From positions 1-17,324 of the forward strand of contig JBDRDL010000013.1 of assembly GCA_043820925.1 (NCBI GenBank): a stretch of 17,324 nucleotides of DNA, in the 5' to 3' direction. This DNA comes from Methanobacteriota archaeon. GTDB lineage: Archaea; Hydrothermarchaeota; Hydrothermarchaeia; Hydrothermarchaeales; JACRDW01. Shown here in pieces: positions 3,060 to 17,324 of this stretch. The notes under the pieces are model-generated. The model worked only from the letters and a program-made list of their open reading frames with translations. It searched no databases and was not told where the DNA came from. Each line of letters opens with the position of its first letter. Position 1 is the stretch's first letter. Position numbers and translations under genes: made by a program.

Positions 3060-3144
3060 TGGGCGATGCCCTAAAGTTATAAATGCACAGCAGCCAAATT
3101 ACTGAGCATGATAAACCTGTACTTCGTTGGAACAGCAGGCAGCG
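3060..3144 (+). repeat. Direct repeat copy 2 (functional GTPase promoter and 5' end); partner 2226..2310
   Basis: See copy 1. The two copies are 834 bp apart and bracket the VapBC cassette. Confidence 0.85.
3073..3085 (+). promoter_or_regulatory. TATA box (AAAGTTATAAATG) for the GTPase gene; spacing implies a leaderless or near-leaderless mRNA
   Basis: The TATA centre lies about 28 nt upstream of the ATG at 3108. An equivalent box sits at 2240-2252 before the chimeric ORF. Confidence 0.55.
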
Positions 3145-3872
3145 GAAAGACCACGCTCACGCATGCATTCCAGCTGTGGATGCAGCAGCACGGCTTCAAT
3201 GCGATAACCATGAACTTAGACCCTGGAGTCGATATGCTGCCTTATCCTGCAGATATAGATGTCCGAGAGTGGGTCAGCATTCCAGAAGTCATGCAGCGCT
3301 ATGGAGTAGGACCAAACGGAGCGCAGATAATCGCAGCCGATTTGCTCGCAGTTAAGGCGAAAGAAATTAAAGAGGTGCTCGAAGAGTTCGAGGCAGACTA
3401 TCTTTTAGTTGATACTCCGGGTCAGATAGAGCTGTTTACGTTGAGGGAGTCGAGCAGGTTCGTGCTCGATGTTTTCGATTCAAAAAAGTCTGCGATTGCC
3501 TTTCTCTTCGACCCTGTTTTAGCAAGAATGCCTGCAGGATTCGTGTCGCTGCTGCTCCTCTGCACCTCAACGCAATTCAGATTCGACATTCCGATTTTCA
3601 ACGTGCTTGCGAAGTCAGATATTCTAAGCCCGGAAGAAGTCGAAAAAATCGTTGAATGGAGCAAAGACAGCGGCAAGCTGTATGACGCCCTCATAAATAC
3701 CAAACCCACGATGCAGACGCAGGCAAGTATCGAATTATTTTATGCTCTCGAAAGAATAGAAGCCTACAAATCCCTCATCCCGATTTCCTCAAAAAATAAC
3801 TACGGCATGGAAGATTTATACAACCTCGCCCAACAAGTGTTTATGGGCGGGGAGGATTTGGGGAAGGATTAG
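3108..3872 (+). CDS. GPN-loop GTPase (archaeal PAB0955/Npa3-like)
   Basis: 254 aa with P-loop GTAGSGKTT, GPN motif (YGVGPNGAQI), DTPGQIE switch and the expected length. Confidence 0.9.
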   Translation: MINLYFVGTAGSGKTTLTHAFQLWMQQHGFNAITMNLDPGVDMLPYPADIDVREWVSIPEVMQRYGVGPNGAQIIAADLLAVKAKEIKEVLEEFEADYLLVDTPGQIELFTLRESSRFVLDVFDSKKSAIAFLFDPVLARMPAGFVSLLLLCTSTQFRFDIPIFNVLAKSDILSPEEVEKIVEWSKDSGKLYDALINTKPTMQTQASIELFYALERIEAYKSLIPISSKNNYGMEDLYNLAQQVFMGGEDLGKD

Positions 3873-4943: not shown

Positions 4944-5025
4944 GCCAATGATGAATGATGGGCGACCTGATTTTCCACGCTTGCATGCAAGTGTGGAAAG
5001 TGATGAGCTCTATGAGCGCTGAGGC
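4944..5025 (+). ncRNA. Box C/D sRNA (2'-O-methylation guide)
   Basis: Layout, in order:
- GCC, then A
- C box AUGAUGA (4948-4954)
- 12-nt guide AUGAUGGGCGAC
- D' box CUGA (4967-4970)
- 29-nt spacer
- C' box GUGAUGA (5000-5006)
- 12-nt guide GCUCUAUGAGCG
- D box CUGA (5019-5022)
- GGC
The terminal GCC/GGC can form a stem and both guides are exactly 12 nt. It sits in the MNT-pyrF intergenic spacer. Confidence 0.75.
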
Positions 5026-6578: not shown

Positions 6579-7942
6579 TTCTTTCCCTTCTTGAGCTCCC
6601 TCAATTCTCTCCGCAGCGCATCTACTTTGGAGTCAATTTCGCTGATTCTTTTCTCGAGCTCTTTCTTTTCAGACTCGAATGATTTTTCTGTAATTTCGTT
6701 TACTGCCATTTTTTTTCTCAGATTTTCTATGCTTAGCCCAAGCTTTTCTTTCTCTTTATTCAAGGCTCTTATTTCACCTGCGATTTCTGTGCTTTTCTTC
6801 ACAGCATCAACTTTCCTCTCAAAGCCCAGAAATCTCCTCCTTTTGAGTTCGTCTATGCTTTTGAATTCCTGAATGCTGCTCTTAATCTCAGTTTGTCTTG
6901 CCTTAAATGCGATTAGCGCAACGAATAGAAAAGCTAGAGCTATCAAAGCTACAGTATAGCTGACTCCTCCCTCCTCAGCCTCCGGCACACGAGTTAAATT
7001 TTTCTGGGATTGCTGCGTTAAGTTTGACTCGATGCGTGCAACTCTCCTCTGTAGTGCTGCCTGCATTTCGAAATTTGCGAGACTTTTAGCTTTTGTTGCT
7101 TCTCTCAATGCGCTCCTCGCATACTCTTCGGCGATGTTTGCGCTTTTCAGCGATTCCGAGTATTCTCTGGAATTGTACTTTGCTTCCCCAAGCTGTAGGA
7201 ACGCTTTAGCATTCTGCAGCAGCTGCGTGGATTGATTGTAAGAAGCTACCGCAGCAGTGAGATTTGCCTCATAGCTCTGAGCATTTTTTACAGCGTTATT
7301 TGCGTCAGCAATTGAGTAGGCAGCTTCAGTTATGAGTGTTTTTGCAGTAGCGATGCACTCAAGAGCCTGCTCTTTGAAGTTGGCGTATTCTATTCTTACC
7401 GGAAATCCATCCTGGATTGCTGAGATATTTTCGAATATAGAAGTGCTGTAGAATAAAATTTCGTTATCTCTATCGATGATTTTATCAACCCTTGGAGCGA
7501 AGCTGCCGAAGTAGTTATTTCGAGGGGAAATGAATTTTATGTTGGTTTTATGCACCAGCCAGGGGTATTTTCCGAGGGACAAGCCTTCGAATAATTTGGT
7601 CGAATCTCTTTCGTAAAGCATGTCAGACCTTCGGTAGCTCAGTTCTACCTTTACTTCCTCCTTGCCCCATATGCTTAGAGCGAGAGCAACTTTCGTAGGA
7701 TGTTCGTCTTTTGGAGTATAAGTTTTTCCATTTAGTTTGATATCCCTCGCATCGCCTCGAATAAAATATACATCGCCATCAAAAAGGTAAGACCCGCCGA
7801 TGTTCTTAAATATTATTTTCTCCTCTACAAAAAAATCGTTCTCGTTAAGATAGTATGTCAGATTGTGCTCAGGAACGTATATGTCTTGAGCATGCACTAC
7901 CGCAGGTAGAGCCACAATTACAAAGAGAAGAATCCACCGCAT
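6575..7942 (-). CDS. Secreted/membrane-anchored coiled-coil protein of unknown function (455 aa)
   Basis: The track ORF (to 8128) is trimmed to Met63 (complement of 7940-7942), because upstream of that it overlaps tRNA-Tyr. The trimmed N-terminus MRWILLFVIVALPAVVHAQ is a signal peptide. Further features are four NLT sequons, a helical Ala/Asn-rich region, a TM helix (VALIALAFLFVALIAF) and a charged cytoplasmic coiled coil. Confidence 0.8.
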   Translation of the reverse strand: MRWILLFVIVALPAVVHAQDIYVPEHNLTYYLNENDFFVEEKIIFKNIGGSYLFDGDVYFIRGDARDIKLNGKTYTPKDEHPTKVALALSIWGKEEVKVELSYRRSDMLYERDSTKLFEGLSLGKYPWLVHKTNIKFISPRNNYFGSFAPRVDKIIDRDNEILFYSTSIFENISAIQDGFPVRIEYANFKEQALECIATAKTLITEAAYSIADANNAVKNAQSYEANLTAAVASYNQSTQLLQNAKAFLQLGEAKYNSREYSESLKSANIAEEYARSALREATKAKSLANFEMQAALQRRVARIESNLTQQSQKNLTRVPEAEEGGVSYTVALIALAFLFVALIAFKARQTEIKSSIQEFKSIDELKRRRFLGFERKVDAVKKSTEIAGEIRALNKEKEKLGLSIENLRKKMAVNEITEKSFESEKKELEKRISEIDSKVDALRRELRELKKGKK

Positions 7943-8027
7943 GTTAATCACATTTTTAGTAGTTAGATATATATTTATTCTCAACGTAGAAATTTTTACC
8001 TTTGGTAAAAATTTCAGACGTTGAAAA

Positions 8028-8038
8028 CCCGTCGTAGC
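8028..8038 (+). repeat. 11-nt perfect copy of the tRNA-Tyr 5' end (CCCGTCGTAGC), 53 nt upstream of the gene
   Basis: Identical to 8081-8091. It is followed by an 8-nt inverted repeat pair AGCACTCG (8036-8043) / CGAGTGCT (8070-8077). Confidence 0.7.
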
Positions 8039-8080
8039 ACTCGTTTGCAAGAACGAGAGCGTAACGACACGAGTGCTCCT

Positions 8081-8198
8081 CCCGTCGTAGCTCAACCTGG
8101 TAGAGCGTCGGACTGTAGACTTCCGCAAGGAAGATGGCGTGCATGCCAGCTTCTTGGCAGAAATCCGATGGTTGCTGGTTCAAATCCGGCCGACGGGA
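8081..8198 (+). tRNA. tRNA-Tyr(GTA) with 44-nt intron (about 8119..8162)
   Basis: Hand-folded.
- Acceptor CCCGTCG/CGACGGG, with the archaeal C1:G72 Tyr identity pair and discriminator A.
- D arm GCTC/GAGC.
- Anticodon stem TCGGA/TCCGA, anticodon GTA at 8115-8117.
- T arm GCTGG-TTCAAAT-CCGGC.
- Intron after position 37; CTGT/GCAG can form the central 4-bp helix of a bulge-helix-bulge with 3-nt bulges AGA and AAA.
- No encoded CCA. Confidence 0.9.
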
Positions 8199-8206
8199 CT
8201 ATAAGC

Positions 8207-8229
8207 CTTTTTCTTTAAAAAAGAAAAAG
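8207..8229. terminator. Perfect 10-bp A/T hairpin (CTTTTTCTTT-AAA-AAAGAAAAAG), likely tRNA-Tyr terminator
   Basis: Starts 9 nt after the tRNA 3' end. It contains a T5 run on the + strand and is symmetric on the - strand. Confidence 0.5.
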
Positions 8230-8344
8230 TCCTATCACTCCAAAAAGAAATTTGTGGTATTGAGCATAGCGAAATACCACGAATACCGTGAGGTAGTGCG
8301 AAAGCTGGCGGTCTTGCTTACGCAAATGATGGTCAACCTTTCTG

Positions 8345-8379
8345 AAGGTTGGTTCCCAAATCCGGCCGACAGGACTATA
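8345..8379 (+). repeat. Degenerate copy of the tRNA-Tyr 3' end (T arm and acceptor)
   Basis: CAAATCCGGCCGACAGGACTATA (8357-8379) matches 8181-8203 at 22/23. Weaker, gapped similarity extends about 12 nt further upstream. The T-loop carries a 2-nt insertion, so it is not a functional tRNA. Confidence 0.75.
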
Positions 8380-9284: not shown

Positions 9285-9379
9285 GCCCTGGTAGTGTAGC
9301 GGCCTATCATGAGGGACTGTCATTTCCGAAAGGAAGCTGAACTCCTTCGACTCGGGTTCAAATCCCGACCAGGGCGCCA
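9285..9379 (+). tRNA. tRNA-Asp(GTC) with 19-nt intron (9323..9341); CCA encoded
   Basis: Hand-folded.
- Acceptor GCCCTGG/CCAGGGC, discriminator G, then CCA.
- Anticodon stem AGGGA/TCCTT, anticodon GTC at 9319-9321.
- T arm TCGGG-TTCAAAT-CCCGA.
- The intron TTTCCGAAAGGAAGCTGAA forms TTCC-GAAA-GGAA.
- The central bulge-helix-bulge helix CTGT/GCTG has one U-U mismatch. Confidence 0.9.
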
Positions 9380-9547: not shown

Positions 9548-9553
9548 TTTGTC

Positions 9554-9616
9554 AGCACTTCGCAATCAAGCTTTCCATATTAAGCAGAGCGAATGATTGC
9601 TTGTGCCGACACCCAC
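9554..9616 (+). repeat. 63-nt conserved element, copy A (partner 13312..13374)
   Basis: Ungapped 55/63 identity with copy B. Both copies retain GCAATCA/TGATTGC (7 bp) and GCTT/AAGC (4 bp). The enclosed loop differs (TCCATATT vs TTCACAC). The element starts 6 nt after tRNA-Lys. Confidence 0.8.
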
Positions 9617-9647
9617 CATTACACTTGCCTTCGGCAAGTGACAGGTT

Positions 9648-9701
9648 TGGTCAAGACCGAGTGAGCGAGGAGTGTAACGACGAGCGAACGAGGGATTGAA
9701 A
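9648..9701 (+). promoter_or_regulatory. Purine-rich leader upstream of rpoH, homologous to the leader upstream of rpoA1 (13443..13498)
   Basis: TGGTCAAGACCGAGTGAGCGAGGAGTGTAACGACGAGCGAACGAGGGATTGAAA aligns with TGGGTCAAGACACGATTGAGTGAAGAACGAAGTTCGAGCGAAAGAGTGGATTGAAA. Both end in GGATTGAAA-ATG. Confidence 0.6.
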
Positions 9702-9938
9702 ATGAAGTTTGATGTACTGAAGCATGAATTAGTTCCGCAGCACGAGGTTTTGCCTGAAGAAGATGCCAATGAGCTGTTAAAAAAATTCAATATAACCAAG
9801 GAACAAATTCCGAAGATTCTGGTTTCAGACCAGGTCGCCAAGAAGATTGGGGCTAAGATTGGGGATGTGGCAAAAATAACAAGGAATAGCAAGACCGCAG
9901 GTAAGAGCGTGGTTTATAGAGTCGTGGTGGCCGAGTGA
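9702..9938 (+). CDS. rpoH: DNA-directed RNA polymerase subunit H (Rpo5)
   Basis: 78 aa from the ATG at 9702; the track begins at an in-frame TTG at 9696. The pattern MKFDVLKHELVPQHEVL...IPKI...GAKIGDVAKITRNSKTAGKSVVYRVV matches RpoH, and it lies first in the rpo operon. Confidence 0.9.
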   Translation: MKFDVLKHELVPQHEVLPEEDANELLKKFNITKEQIPKILVSDQVAKKIGAKIGDVAKITRNSKTAGKSVVYRVVVAE

Positions 9939-9944
9939 GGTGAT

Positions 9945-11435
9945 ATGTTGATAGAAACAAAGCCGATTATGCGCGCTTTTCTAAAGAAGAGAGAGCTTGT
10001 GAGGCAGCACATAGATTCCTACAACGACTTCATCGAGAACCGCCTGCAAGAAATCATCAACGACACGGGAAAGATAGAGACTGATATAGGCGTTGAGGTT
10101 CGCTTGGGCAAAATTACTGTGGACAAAGCAGAGGTAATTGAAGCTGATGGCTCAAAAAACAGGCTTAAGCCTGTGGAAGCAAGGTTAAGAAATCTGAGCT
10201 ACTTTTCTCCGATTTATTTGGAGATGACACCGAAGAAAGTGGACCAAGAGGGAGAGACCGAGACAGTAAAAATAGGAATGCTGCCAACGATGCTGAAATC
10301 CAAGATATGCAATTTATATGGACTGAGCGATGCAGAGTTAGTTAAAGCCAGCGAGGATCCCCTTGACCCGGGAGGGTATTTTATCGTCAATGGCTCGGAG
10401 AGAGCGCTGGTGACAATTGAAGACCTCGCCCCGAATAAAATCATGCTGGAGCACAGCGAGAAATACACAAAGACAACTGAGGTTGCAAAAGTTTTCTCTA
10501 AGAGGAGCGGCTTCAGGGCATTGGTTACAGTCGAGAGAGACAAGGACGGATTGATAGGAGTTTCTTTCCCGTCAGTGCCCGGAGAAATACCTTTCATAAT
10601 TTTAACGAGAGCGCTCGGCTTGGAAACTGACCAGGAGATAGTGAATACTATTTCCGACGACCCTGAAATCGTGCAGAGCATTTTGGAAAATCTTGAGGAA
10701 TACTTAGACGTAAAAACAACGCAGGCTGCAATCGAGATTATAGGGAAAAAGGTAGCAGCAGGGCAGACGAGGGAATACAGGTTAAAAAGAGCTGAGCAGG
10801 TAATCGACAGGTATTTGCTGCCGCACATTGGTGTGGAGCCCGAGGATAGAATAAGGAAGGCGCACTATCTGGGCAGAATGGTCATAAGGGTCCTCGAGAT
10901 GGCGCTGGGCAAGAGAGGACCAGACGATAAAGACCACTATGCAAACAAAAGGTTGAGGCTGGCAGGGGATTTGATGGAGGATTTATTCAGGGTCGCATTT
11001 TATAATCTTACGAGGGATATAAAGTATCAGCTTGAAAGAGCAGTTGTAAGAGGTAAAGAGCCGAGCGTGCACACTGCAGTCAGAACAGATGTTTTAACAG
11101 AGAGAATAAGGCACGCTCTAGCAACTGGCAACTGGGTTGGGGGAAGGGCAGGCGTAAGCCAGCTCTTAGACAGGACAAATTATATTTCAGTTGTATCCCA
11201 CTTGAGAAGGGTAATCTCGCCGCTAAGCCGTTCACAGCCGCACTTCGAGGCAAGAGACCTGCACCCGACGCAGTGGGGAAAGATTTGTCCGAGTGAAACT
11301 CCTGAGGGACCGAACTGCGGGCTGGTTAAAAACCTTGCACTGGCGTGCGAGTTTTCAACAGGTTTTGATGAGCTTTTGATAGAGAATGTGCTATATGACC
11401 TTGGAGTAAAGCAAATTCGCAAGGTGGCACTGTAA
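9945..11435 (+). CDS. rpoB2: DNA-directed RNA polymerase subunit B'' (N-terminal part of split B)
   Basis: 496 aa with conserved B N-terminal blocks ([33 protein letters not shown]). Shine-Dalgarno GAGGTGAT lies 1 nt before the ATG. Confidence 0.95.
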
Positions 11436-13246
11436 TGACTGCCAATATATATATTAACGGTAAGCTGATCGGAACTCGCACAGAACCTTTGGTTCTCGTA
11501 GAGAAAATCAAAGAGCTGCGGAGAAAGGGAAAGCTCTCAATGCAAGTAAACGTCGCCTACTACGAAGATACAGATGAAGTCTTGGTGAATACTGATGCAG
11601 GAAGGGCTAGAAGACCTTTGCTGGTCGTTGAGAACGGCAAGCCACGCATTAGGGACAAGGAATTAGAAGCCCTGAAGAATGGGGAGATTACTTGGGACGA
11701 TTTGGTAGCCAGCGGAGCTGTTGAATATCTGGATTCTGAAGAAGAAGAAAATGCATACATTGCAGTTACTCCGCAGGAGCTAACCAAAGAGCACACCCAC
11801 CTGGAGATAGACCCGCTGTTTATGCTCGGCGTCTGCACTGCTGTATTGCCCTACCCCGAGCACAACTCATCTCCGAGAAATACGATGGGCGCAGGCATGG
11901 CGAAGCAGTCCATAGGTTTTTACGCTTCTAATTTTAAGTATCGCACAGATACGAGAGGACATCTCTTACAGTATCCCCAGCTTTCGCTGCTTCAAACCGA
12001 AATCACGGGCTCGGTCGGCTATGACAGCAGAGCGGCAGGGCAGAATTTCGTGGTCGCTGTGCTTTCCTACCAAGGATACAATATGGAGGATGCACTTATT
12101 TTAAACAAGGCTGCCATAGATAGAGGCCTGGGCAGGAGCACTTTCTTTAGAGCATATGAGGCAGAGGAGAGGCGCTACCCAGGAGGGCAGGTGGATAAAT
12201 TCGAGCTGCCAGAGCCTGAAATCAGAGGCTACAGGGCAGAAGAAGACTACAAGAATCTTGGAGAGGACGGGATAATAGAAACAGAATCAGAAGTTTCTTC
12301 TGGACAGGTTTTAATCGGCAAAACTTCACCGCCTAGATTTTTGGAAGAAATCAGCGAGTATGGCATGGCCAGGGAGAAGAGGAGAGAAACCTCTGTTACC
12401 GTAAGGCACTGGGAGAAAGGCGTGGTTGATTTGGTGATGCTGACTGAGAGCGTTGGAGGTAATAAACTGGTTAAAATCAGGGTTAGAGACCAGCGCACTC
12501 CAGAGCTGGGAGATAAGTTTGCTTCAAGGCACGGGCAGAAGGGAGTAGTAGGAATGATAATTCCGCAGGAGGACATGCCTTTCACCGAGAACGGAATAAT
12601 TCCTGATTTGATAATAAATCCACATGCGATTCCTTCGAGGATGACGGTGGGGCAGGTTCTGGAAATGCTCGGAGGCAAGGTAGCCTCGCTGGACGGCAGG
12701 CGTATCGACGGAACTGCCTTCTCAGGCACAAAAGAAGCAGCGCTTAGGGAAGCGCTTAAGAAAGCGGGCTTCAAGCACAATGGTAGAGAAGTAATGTACA
12801 ACGGAATAACTGGCGAAAAAATAGAGGCAGAAATTTTTATAGGCGTTGCGTATTATCAGAAGCTTCACCACATGGTTTCAGGGAAGATTCACGCCCGCTC
12901 TCGAGGTCCTGTTCAAGTGCTGACAAGGCAGCCGACTGAAGGCAGAGCCAGAGAAGGAGGATTGAGGTTCGGAGAAATGGAGCGGGATTGTCTCATAAGC
13001 TATGGGGCAGCGCTTCTGCTTAAAGAGCGTCTCTTAGACGAGTCAGACAGGCATACCATGCAAGTTTGCGAGAAGTGCGGCAGCACAGCAGTTTATGATA
13101 AAATCAGGGATACAATATATTGCTCAATCTGCGGGCGTGATATAGACGCTGCGGAGGTAGAGGTTTCTTACGCATTCAAATTATTGCTAGACGAGCTAAA
13201 ATCCCTCGGCATAAACTCGAAGCTTGTGCTGGGAGATAAAGCATAG
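11435..13246 (+). CDS. rpoB1: DNA-directed RNA polymerase subunit B' (C-terminal part of split B)
   Basis: 603 aa with [40 protein letters not shown] and a C-terminal Zn ribbon (CEKCG...CSICG). TAATG overlaps with rpoB2. Confidence 0.95.
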
Positions 13247-13264
13247 TGGGTCAAGACACGATTG
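13246..13264 (+). repeat. 19-nt perfect direct repeat, copy 1 (GTGGGTCAAGACACGATTG)
   Basis: Identical to 13442..13460. Its first G is the last base of the rpoB1 TAG stop codon. Confidence 0.9.
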
Positions 13265-13268
13265 TCAA

Positions 13269-13311
13269 TTCCGACAGGAAGCTGGTATGCACGCCATCTT
13301 CCTTGCGGAAG
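13269..13311 (-). repeat. Reverse-complement copy of the tRNA-Tyr intron
   Basis: The complement of 13278-13311 matches 8120-8153 at 33/34 (CTTCCGCAAGGAAGATGGCGTGCAT[G/A]CCAGCTTC). A further 6/9 match extends to the intron's 3' end, giving about 39/43 overall. The similarity stops at both exon-intron junctions. Confidence 0.85.
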
Positions 13312-13374
13312 AGCACTTCGCAATCAAGCTTTTCACACAAGCAAGAGCGAATGATTGCTTATGCCGACACCCAC
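13312..13374 (+). repeat. 63-nt conserved element, copy B (partner 9554..9616)
   Basis: See copy A. It is followed by the hairpin CTTGC-GATA-GCAAG (13374-13387). Copy A is followed by CACTTGC-CTTCG-GCAAGTG (9622-9640). Confidence 0.8.
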
Positions 13375-13441
13375 TTGCGATAGCAAGACCGTGAGCCTTG
13401 CGCCCAGCTAACGCTGGTGCACTTGCGTAGCAAATGGTGTC

Positions 13442-13460
13442 GTGGGTCAAGACACGATTG
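13442..13460 (+). repeat. 19-nt perfect direct repeat, copy 2
   Basis: GTGGGTCAAGACACGATTG. It runs straight into the purine-rich leader of rpoA1. Confidence 0.9.
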
Positions 13461-13498
13461 AGTGAAGAACGAAGTTCGAGCGAAAGAGTGGATTGAAA

Positions 13499-17321
<3,823 letters not shown>

Positions 17322-17324
17322 TTC

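Follow-up and report, generated by a model that had tools for sequence, protein, structure and literature searches.

Introduction

Small repeats comparable to the family described here are known from bacteria as the Correia elements of Neisseria and the BOX elements of pneumococci, the latter built of modules (boxA, boxB, boxC), and for repetitive extragenic palindromic (REP) elements RNA-stabilising side effects are considered possible. Putative mobile promoters, that is, the reuse of promoters and leaders in prokaryotes, were reportedly described by Matus-Garcia, Nijveen and van Passel in 2012. Further systems for comparison are the REP elements and bacterial interspersed mosaic elements (BIMEs) of enterobacteria and the REPIN-RAYT system of Pseudomonas, as treated in two papers (PMC3116915; PMC3337134), the miniature transposable elements with inverted repeats (MITEs) of prokaryotes including archaea (reviewed in PMC10969869), and tRNA intron transposition in Thermoproteales (Fujishima et al., 2010, in the summary contained in PMC4090602). 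Mosaic palindromic repeats are much studied in bacteria and poorly described in archaea, where REP-like palindromes have been surveyed generically (PMC12306157); our literature search found no paper on repeats in Hydrothermarchaeota. Here we analyse the spacer between the RNA polymerase genes rpoB1 (B') and rpoA1 (A') in a window of 17,324 nt, which is the whole contig of a metagenome-assembled genome (MAG) of Hydrothermarchaeota type (placement by its RpoB' protein), and compare it with related contigs, designated by L numbers.

The spacer is probably one locus of a lineage-specific, fast-changing family of mosaic hairpin repeats that belongs to an uncultured subclade of Hydrothermarchaeota and is REP/BIME- or MITE-like in character. 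Genome comparisons show an array built after the split from relatives with spacers of 8-46 nt, and a rate at which its modules are inserted, nested and exchanged that is far above the pace of point substitution, the same modules also forming tRNA introns. The family sits in the cell's most conserved operon, where gene junctions of 8-15 nt become structured spacers of 170-300 nt, and it would thereby offer a natural system for how archaeal operons tolerate losing translational coupling.

Anatomy of the rpoB1-rpoA1 spacer

Genes in the window follow the order 5S rRNA, tRNA-Asp, tRNA-Lys, rpoH, rpoB2, rpoB1, rpoA1, rpoA2. On the forward strand, to which the features below belong unless stated otherwise, the rpoB1 reading frame (11435-13246; product 100% identical to RpoB' P0001) closes with TAG at 13244-13246 and the ATG of rpoA1 stands at 13499-13501, which gives the gap of 252 nt reported in a preliminary description of this DNA. 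That description also drew attention to a perfect 19-nt direct repeat, GTGGGTCAAGACACGATTG, whose copies do lie at 13246-13264 and 13442-13460, the G of the rpoB1 stop codon (13246) being base 1 of the left copy. The identity extends no further, not by one base on either side, and the repeat has just two matches in the window even with three mismatches allowed (shuffles: mean 0.01 matches, 0/200 reaching two). Equally accurate was the observation that cutting out one repeat together with 177 nt leaves a 56-nt spacer collinear with the rpoH leader: this remnant shares 46 identities with the 57 nt before rpoH, compared with 34.3 ± 2.0 and a maximum of 40 in 1000 shuffles. The contents listed there were recovered as well, namely an antisense copy of the tRNA-Tyr intron (13269-13311, complementary to 8120-8162, 91% over 43 nt), a 63-nt element common with the tRNA-Lys/rpoH spacer (13312-13374 versus 9554-9616, 87%) and the hairpin CTTGC-GATA-GCAAG (CTTGCGATAGCAAG at 13374-13387). 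The spacer is indeed rich in hairpins, both strands folding better than shuffles (z = -3.0 and -3.2). A coding role was considered and rejected: the only open reading frames (ORFs) across it comprise 56 aa (forward) and 97 aa (reverse), and indels in L001, L004 and L002 preserve neither.

The block of 196 nt had been taken for a single unit, which did not hold up, since the 45 nt at 13268-13312 are a separate insertion within the 63-nt element. The block is a mosaic in which no fewer than five modules are combined, each with a history of its own and each recurring elsewhere. From the rpoB1 stop codon onwards, the layout consists of a box, a hairpin named H1 that is split by a 45-nt hairpin, the motif ACCCA, three small hairpins, a second box, a purine-rich leader and a Shine-Dalgarno sequence with the ATG. 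The box family motif is (G)TGGGT(C/G)AAGAC(AC)GA and opens a purine-rich leader of 40-50 nt. In the left repeat copy (13246-13264) the box TGGGTCAAGACACGA is followed by TTG, whose final G (13264) doubles as base 1 of the H1 stem. H1 itself runs from 13264 to 13368 as GTCA, then GCACTTCG-CAATCA-AAGCTTTTCACAC...CGAATG-TGATTG-CTTAT-GCCGAC, and is split after 13267; a covariance model (see below) matches it at 13311-13372 with 65.5 bits, and the hairpin is uninterrupted in L001.

The interrupting 45-nt module (13268-13312), ATTCCGACAGGAAGCTGG-N-ATCTTCCTTGCGGAAGA or, written otherwise, ATTCCGNNAGGAAGCTGG-N-ATCTTCCTTGCGGAAGA, is inserted at TCA^GCAC inside H1 and is the reverse complement of the window's own tRNA-Tyr intron. 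It is missing from the spacer of L001, a contig with 96% nucleotide identity to the window. L137 has it at this very site of H1, and L002 and L141 have it at GGTCAAGA^; the copy of L002 sits in the S12-S7 spacer, where L004 has no such module. ACCCA (13369-13373) trails nearly every H1 copy, and the TGGGT in either box (13247-13251 or 13443-13447) is a possible pairing partner for it, the minimum-free-energy fold taking the upstream one. The mini hairpin CTTGC-GATA-GCAAG that follows (13374-13387) belongs to a general type CACTTGC-loop-GCAAGTG, a class found after H1 at most loci. Two more hairpin modules are predicted by folding at 13388-13441, ACCGTGAGCCTTGCGCCCAGCTAACGCTGGTGC and a mini hairpin CACTTGC-GTA-GCAAATG, and this string recurs in the same order at the unrelated locus L127 and in part in L008.

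The right repeat copy (13442-13460) is the box that opens the leader module, as an alignment of 12 box-plus-leader modules (alignment A3) indicates. According to the same alignment, the leader at 13461-13498 forms a small hairpin at 13467-13477 (GAAC-GAA-GTTC) and has the Shine-Dalgarno context GAGTGGATTGAAA, and leaders in general carry a small covarying hairpin and end in GAG(T)GGATTGAAA(A)TG. The string GGATTGAAA(A)TG is the lineage's general start context and also precedes an ordinary gene at 1821. In support of the earlier interpretation, the segment from the right repeat to the ATG is a paralogue of the rpoH leader. A paralogous cassette lies between tRNA-Lys and rpoH (9551-9701) and comprises H1 (9551-9610; covariance-model match 79.8 bits), ACCCA, a mini hairpin CACTTGCC-TTCG-GGCAAGTG (9622-9641), a box (~9646-9661), the leader and a Shine-Dalgarno sequence.

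Orthologous spacers and the flanking repeat

The rpoB1-rpoA1 spacer measures 252 nt in the window, 206 nt in L001 (RpoB' identity 98%, nucleotide identity 96%), 296 nt in L002 (RpoB' 93%) and 169 nt in L004 (RpoB' 92%). In L123, L124, L125 and L126, with RpoB' identities of 81-84%, the corresponding gaps amount to 8, 15, 10 and 46 nt, and the junctions are tight operon-wide. Because relatives at this distance have such short gaps, the expansion of the spacer is real and clade-specific, in agreement with the earlier suggestion that it was expanded secondarily. The 56-nt leader itself is missing from these more distant relatives. The search for an empty site covered eight close relatives, four of which (L147, L148, L149, L150) have the box right after the stop codon on contigs that end inside or shortly past it. 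In all eight, the box stands directly past the rpoB1 stop, and wherever the contig continues a long variable array lies beyond; the empty site of ~56 nt expected in close relatives was found in none of the four whose contigs span the spacer.

These observations bear on the interpretation first put forward, a single non-autonomous element of ~177 nt (a MITE or integrated remnant) inserted into a 56-nt spacer, with the 19-nt repeat as target-site duplication or att core. The repeat is perfect and far above chance, its removal gives back a leader collinear with that of rpoH, and the two copies stay identical in each lineage (GATTG versus GACTG), which a duplication at insertion would explain; other insertions in the window are flanked by duplications too, including one of a tRNA 3' part as is typical of integrases. 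However, the motif GGGT(C/G)AAGAC(AC)GA opens leaders at no fewer than 12 unrelated loci and flanks H1 in the unrelated L116, where the box pair shares 15 nt with one mismatch. The two boxes agree over 19 nt in the window and L001, 18 nt in L004, 15 nt in L149 and 12 nt in L002. Since the box recurs at unrelated loci and the identity of its copies varies between 12 and 19 nt, the repeat is unlike a target duplication made by a transposase, and we read it as two copies of the family's box motif rather than a duplication of an arbitrary target site. Furthermore, the block at 13265-13441 begins with TCAATTCC and ends with ATGGTGTC and no inverted repeat joins its ends, inverted termini within the block being confined to the inner H1 module. 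The block is a mosaic whose 45-nt part was gained separately, L127 and L008 carry the composite without the left repeat, and the four spanning relatives offer no empty site. Neither an ORF in the block, nor an integrase among the Pfam-annotated neighbours of the fetched loci, nor any H1 or box copy in viral contigs was found. With a flanking repeat that is itself a family motif, a mosaic interior and no terminal inverted repeats, a single MITE-like or att-bounded insertion is improbable. Integrase activity in the lineage stays conceivable, given the duplicated tRNA 3' parts nearby.

The H1 hairpin and its distribution

H1 follows a plan of ~62 nt, [G/C]TCAGCAC-TTCG-stem-AAGCTTTTCNC-13 to 14 nt-CGAATG-stem-CT(C/T)GT-GCCGA[C/G]. 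Over 19 copies its stems covary strongly, which marks it as a real hairpin on comparative grounds. Its helices show 94.3% of cells paired and 35 cells with double-sided changes, as against 13.6 ± 2.5 in shuffles (0/500 reaching 35), and when the partner columns are slid, pairing falls to 18-38%. At the outermost pair, 8 copies have G-C and 10 have C-G, and an A.C mismatch in the outer helix is near-invariant (18/19 copies).

A covariance model built from these 19 copies and run on 274 kb of related contigs returned 44 matches at E <= 1, ~40 of them below 0.01, and zero in L124-L126. A metagenome scan with the H1 5' half gave 20 matches, comprising 12 true elements, 11 of which lie on different contigs of one sample, and 8 chance matches within coding DNA. 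The pattern used for the genome collection, CAGCACTTCN{35,65}GCCGASACCCA, was too loose and nearly all its matches were bacterial chance hits; among the 118 matches listed, L008, L031 and L116 are real. In viral contigs the H1 pattern had no match, and 34 matches to the H1 3' end were all without a nearby H1 5' end or box. The content of the block belongs to a dispersed, non-coding, hairpin-rich repeat family.

Copies are also nested, with one H1 lying within the minimal outer stem of another in L141 and L004, and large modules are inserted in the H1 apex in L127, L139 and L148. Six independent assemblies, the window contig included, break at family elements, which makes these repeats a practical cause of fragmented MAG assemblies. 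At its end (17313-17324) the window contig closes with TAATTC, 3 nt past the rpoA2 stop, at a point where L001 runs on into H1 (TAATTC|TCAGCAC).

Turnover between closely related strains

Modules differ between strains that are nearly identical otherwise; changes at the level of modules are therefore much faster than substitutions at single positions. Of the 4-fold degenerate sites, 0.5-0.7% differ between the window and L147, which are identical from tRNA-Lys through H1 (163/163) and in rpoH (236/236), whereas the segment between these flanks, from H1 to the rpoH ATG (88/108 nt), is just 58% identical. Here L147 has another variant of the mini hairpin, and an A/T-rich palindrome module replaces the purine-rich leader. 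This palindrome module is also found in L008, upstream of rpl30e in L001 and upstream of tRNA-Tyr in the window; copies of the form ACGTAGAAAATTTGC...GCAAATTTTCAGACGT lie at 7983-8027 of the window, at 7490-7530 of L001, at ~2215-2260 of L147 and at ~735-800 of L008. It may carry a promoter, and it is inverted or different in the window as compared with L147. Across ~2 kb of non-coding DNA the two strains show at least six differences at module level, among them a 53-nt insertion at the tRNA-Tyr 5' end, a module of ~62 nt past tRNA-Tyr, an 84-nt insertion after a flavin reductase gene, a different promoter-proximal palindrome and a wholly different tRNA-Tyr intron.

Similarly, L148 and L149 have identical RpoB' proteins and different H1 types at the rpoB1-rpoA1 site. 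Orthologous sites in general bear different H1 subtypes, and the "CAATCA" subtype recurs at non-orthologous sites of different genomes. Between the window and L001, divergence at 4-fold sites is 5.6% in rpoB1 (11435-13243) and 13.6% in rpoA1 (13499-16153), a jump across the spacer that hints at a breakpoint of recombination in the array of repeats or close to it.

Cassettes at other loci and the question of function

The order of stop codon or tRNA end, H1, ACCCA, mini hairpin, box, leader, GGATTGAAA and ATG recurs before unrelated genes at 12 loci or more, mostly without an upstream box. A full cassette stands before rpoH, rpoA1 and rpl30e, and further genes fronted by cassettes are, as we take them to be from N-termini read by eye, those for L24e, S15, a cytidylate-kinase-like, a TraB-like and a HypA protein and a protein of 49 aa. 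A short form consisting of box and leader alone precedes rps7, a related box-leader precedes a Nop5-like gene, and box-leader units form tandem stacks in L133 and L004. At the unrelated locus L116 the box-H1-hairpin-box layout lies downstream of a TATA box. L127 has exactly the composite of the window (H1, CTTGCGNGAGCAAG, GCGCCCAGCTAACGCTGGTGC, CTTGCGTAGCAAG, GTGGGTCAAGACACGA) without any upstream box; the composite in L008, with the same H1 subtype and different inner modules, is related, not identical, and it too has no upstream box.

H1 stands with its TCAGCAC end 2-6 nt away from a stop codon or 3-6 nt past a tRNA 3' end. The tRNAs so adjoined include tRNA-Lys, Arg(TCT), Gln and Pro, with ~8 junctions when 3' fragments and duplicates are counted. 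In reverse orientation, H1 is found 3 nt before tRNA-Arg(CCG) in L140, 6 nt before tRNA-His in L144 and 10-20 nt before three start codons. A complete cassette, from H1 through GGATTGAAA, is reversed between tRNA-Glu and tRNA-His in L144 (2378-2536). This reversed cassette has no protein-coding gene to serve; the neighbouring tRNA-Glu gene contains an intron and was missed by ARAGORN.

Such a distribution raises the question whether the cassette, H1 above all, is a selected cis-regulatory element of highly expressed information-processing genes and tRNAs, either a protein-binding site or a processing site by which the ends and stability of mRNAs are set, so that its copies would form a regulon instead of being selfish DNA. 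Nearly all complete cassettes at the loci examined face a downstream gene, genes for RNA polymerase subunits, ribosomal proteins and RNA-processing factors are over-represented among those downstream, and H1 adjoins the 3' end of at least eight different tRNAs. The blocks TCAGCACTTCG, CAAGCTTTTC, CGAATG and GTGCCGAS are invariant at fixed spacing while the stems covary, and between the window and L001 the spacer has changed less than 4-fold sites have. Against a regulon, H1 and whole cassettes also occur reversed, as does the full cassette of L144 between its two tRNA genes, and near-identical strains swap modules with no sign of constraint on which. L124-L126 (RpoB' 81-83%) are without elements and L123 (84%) has H1 only beside tRNA-Lys, all four having tight junctions. 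Wobble pairs in H1 amount to 4 G.U versus 6 A.C, plus the one invariant A.C, counts without a strand bias that would mark an RNA strand, and Rfam 15 gave no match at E <= 1 for 9549-9704 or 13246-13498. On balance we regard a regulon as unlikely, if worth serious consideration.

A mobile repeat family, which we favour, has to contend with several of the same facts. The orientation of complete cassettes, the frequency with which they adjoin tRNAs and genes of translation and transcription, the four invariant H1 blocks at fixed spacing and a spacer divergence of 2.9% between the window and L001, below that of 4-fold sites (5.6-13.6%), all weigh against it; an element under selection for a function would account for them equally well, or better, than one that is purely selfish. 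Both boxes also have bases in common that are specific to a lineage and not part of the consensus, GATTG occurring twice in the window and L001 and GACTG twice in L004, and gene conversion, or repeated duplication at each insertion, is needed to explain this. In the loci fetched we noticed no enzyme that could mobilise the modules, be it a transposase, an integrase or another, which leaves the mode of spread a matter of conjecture, and the census draws on MAG fragments and on an overly loose genome-collection scan.

Module insertions and tRNA introns

Spacer modules are related to tRNA genes at tRNA-Tyr (Rfam match 8081-8198), whose 44-nt intron (8119-8162) consists of the 45-nt module reversed plus a constant 3' GCAGAA. 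The introns at the canonical 37/38 position of tRNA-Tyr differ fully between genomes, with 44 nt in the window, 54 nt in L147 (~650-703) and 23 nt in L002 (~6805-6827). That of L147 is built of mini-hairpin modules, and the body of that of L002 contains CTTGCGATAGCAA, which is near-identical to the spacer mini hairpin CTTGC-GATA-GCAAG. All three keep a 3' (G/A)CAGAA that pairs with the anticodon loop, and the tRNA-Tyr of L123 (5373-5447; RpoB' 84%) has no intron. The tRNA-Asp intron TTTCCGAAAGGAAGCTGAA (9323-9341) is similar to the 45-nt module in its first half and, as the module does in the spacer, comes after TGTCA (13263-13284 versus 9318-9339, 91%).

Insertions also flank the tRNA genes. 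At the 5' end of tRNA-Tyr, a hairpin-forming insertion of 53 nt (8028-8091), flanked by the 11-nt direct repeat CCCGTCGTAGC, comes from the same module pool and makes an upstream pseudo 5' end; it is missing in L147 and L002. Past tRNA-Tyr, an insertion at 8181-8379 is flanked by a duplicated 3' part of the tRNA (8181-8203 and 8357-8379; 23 nt at 96%, 176 nt apart, weaker further out), as at integrase att sites. It contains no ORF and has modules related to those of the spacer. Similar tRNA 3' duplicates were seen at tRNA-Lys in L123 (11 nt) and seemingly at tRNA-Phe in L130. Altogether, duplications of 10-36 nt flank insertions at targets of four kinds, namely the box, the 3' ends of tRNAs, the 5' end of a tRNA and that of H1 (TCAGCACTT).

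In tRNA-Tyr the reversed 45-nt module is bounded by CUGU/GCAG and two 3-nt bulges. The possibility that the module forms a bulge-helix-bulge intron in the spacer was rejected by a hand check, as the upstream UUGU and the CGGA of the module form no 4-bp helix; with no bulge-helix-bulge motif there, the module is probably not spliced in the spacer. An origin by RNA-mediated spread might be considered, in which excised hairpin RNAs such as tRNA introns, which are circularised in archaea, would be reverse-transcribed and inserted in the manner of short interspersed elements with variable duplications. Two spacer modules do correspond to tRNA-Tyr intron bodies, and the flanking duplications do vary from 10 to 36 nt. 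Yet no reverse transcriptase was noticed, poly-A or similar tails are missing, modules stand in both orientations and the 45-nt module lacks the bulge-helix-bulge in the spacer, which together make this route extremely improbable.

A tentative extension of the mobile repeat family, and one we would not put forward as the likelier outcome, is that a mobile pool of hairpin modules supplies both plug-in intercistronic cassettes, which recently split the tightly coupled core RNA polymerase and ribosomal protein operons, and the bodies of tRNA introns. If this were true, archaeal tRNA introns would be gained or replaced at the DNA level from intergenic repeats, faster than 1% synonymous divergence. 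Since they double as intron bodies, the modules offer a concrete route, open to testing, by which tRNA introns of archaea may be gained and moved, a matter of long debate.

Transcription, mode of spread and possible consequences

The spacer has no T run of five or more and no A/T-only 7-mer, and with neither a canonical archaeal TATA box nor an oligo-T terminator, the array is probably transcribed within the rpo mRNA. An internal promoter in H1, with AAGCTTTTC as TATA-like sequence and CGAATG as initiator, could provide an extra start for rpoA1-rpoA2. Two conserved H1 blocks are indeed 13-14 nt apart with unconstrained sequence between them, the TTTT and CGAATG of H1 being spaced like the window's 5S rRNA promoter, which has TTTATATA and then GCGAATGC at a similar distance, and reversed H1 lies just upstream of two tRNA genes (3 nt in L140, 6 nt in L144) and three start codons (10-20 nt). 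On the other hand, the recognisable promoters of the lineage are A/T-only octamers (TTTATATA, TTAAATAT), whereas H1 offers only TTTT between C and G and the spacer not even an A/T-only 7-mer; the tRNA-Lys of L124 lies 33 nt from rpoH without a TATA box, which makes co-transcription plausible in the group, and the covariation of the stems would have no role. A promoter function of H1 is therefore very improbable. At the L124 locus (~8235-8270), which is free of elements, the 33 nt between tRNA-Lys and the rpoH start hold no TATA-like sequence, and this layout suggests that tRNA-Lys and rpoH may be co-transcribed in this group.

Several RNA classes were rejected by sequence inspection: for a K-turn, the GA bases fall in Watson-Crick pairs; for a C/D-box sRNA in the spacer, there is no C box and just a CUGA on the reverse strand; and for an H/ACA sRNA, the internal loop is too small and ACA is missing. 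Elsewhere in the window, a C/D-box sRNA-like gene was seen at 4944-5024 (ATGATGA...CTGA...GTGATGA...CTGA, with a long central hairpin), whose best Rfam match, sR3, reaches 36.1 bits, under the gathering score of 41. Separately, a 45-nt direct repeat at 89% (2266-2310 and 3100-3144) was noted, the ORF at 3108-3872 (ATP_bind_1 family in relatives) having its 5' end duplicated at the start of the short ORF 2274-2432.

With respect to the mode of spread, the mobile repeats might move as DNA, through recombination or through template switching with templated insertion. Such events would be anchored on short conserved motifs, namely the box, the H1 ends and the stems of the mini hairpins, and could leave direct duplications of variable length. 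As the flanking duplications do vary in length, recombination or template switching is our best guess rather than a transposase with a fixed stagger.

The ancestral junction of 8-15 nt suggests translational coupling of B' and A'. In place of this tight, probably coupled junction the array would put stable RNA hairpins and, after them, a leader that is self-contained and has a Shine-Dalgarno sequence, and rpoA1 would then be translated by independent initiation. The array might also act as the processing, attenuation or decoupling site suggested in the preliminary description. By analogy with REP elements, the hairpins may block RNA decay and shield the 3' end of the upstream mRNA or a processed downstream 5' end. 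The elements may be mostly selfish or neutral passengers, presumably tolerated because they bring their own translation start context.

Relation to known systems

Compared with putative mobile promoters, the family likewise presents near-identical 5' regions before unrelated genes, but no promoter has been demonstrated here and the cassettes also stand within operons and beside tRNA genes. The modular build is shared with BOX elements. An att-bounded remnant would have an att core in common with a virus or plasmid and an integrase nearby, neither of which was found for the spacer block in viral contigs and among Pfam-annotated neighbours. With MITEs the family has several traits in common: it is small, non-coding, multi-copy, hairpin-forming, intergenic, co-transcribed and assembly-breaking, and it is dispersed, with ~40 H1 copies in 274 kb of related contigs and 12 metagenome loci. 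It departs from MITEs in that the 177/196-nt block lacks terminal inverted repeats, that the flanking repeat, itself a family motif, is 19, 19, 18, 15, 15 or 12 nt long rather than a fixed-length duplication of an arbitrary target, and that no parent insertion sequence was noticed in the loci fetched.

In Thermoproteales, according to the summary in PMC4090602, near-identical intron sequences at different places likewise point to movement at the DNA level by an unknown mechanism. In contrast to that case, the sequences here are common to intercistronic spacers, gene leaders and tRNA introns, the host is of euryarchaeal type, and the intron body at the fixed tRNA-Tyr 37/38 position is replaced between strains with only the 3' (G/A)CAGAA kept. 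Movement of tRNA intron sequences is already known from Thermoproteales (PMC4090602), but it is not known to have a tie to intergenic repeats.

The family differs from REP and REPIN elements in several respects. It is archaeal and limited to one subclade of Hydrothermarchaeota; no RAYT/Y1 transposase was noticed in the fetched loci; and there is no GTAG/CGTC tag, the bases 5' of H1 usually being TT. Unlike in REP elements, the mosaic regularly ends in a leader and Shine-Dalgarno sequence right at the next start codon, and the modules double as tRNA intron bodies. Its turnover between near-identical strains is also much faster than the persistence of REPINs described in the literature (PMC3116915; PMC3337134). 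REP/BIME and REPIN elements are, with BOX elements and MITEs, the closest analogues of the family. As in REP elements and BIMEs, its members are short imperfect palindromes, extragenic, often intercistronic and transcribed, present in high copy and joined in mosaics with other short motifs, and their hairpin arms have conserved sequence and preserved mismatches.

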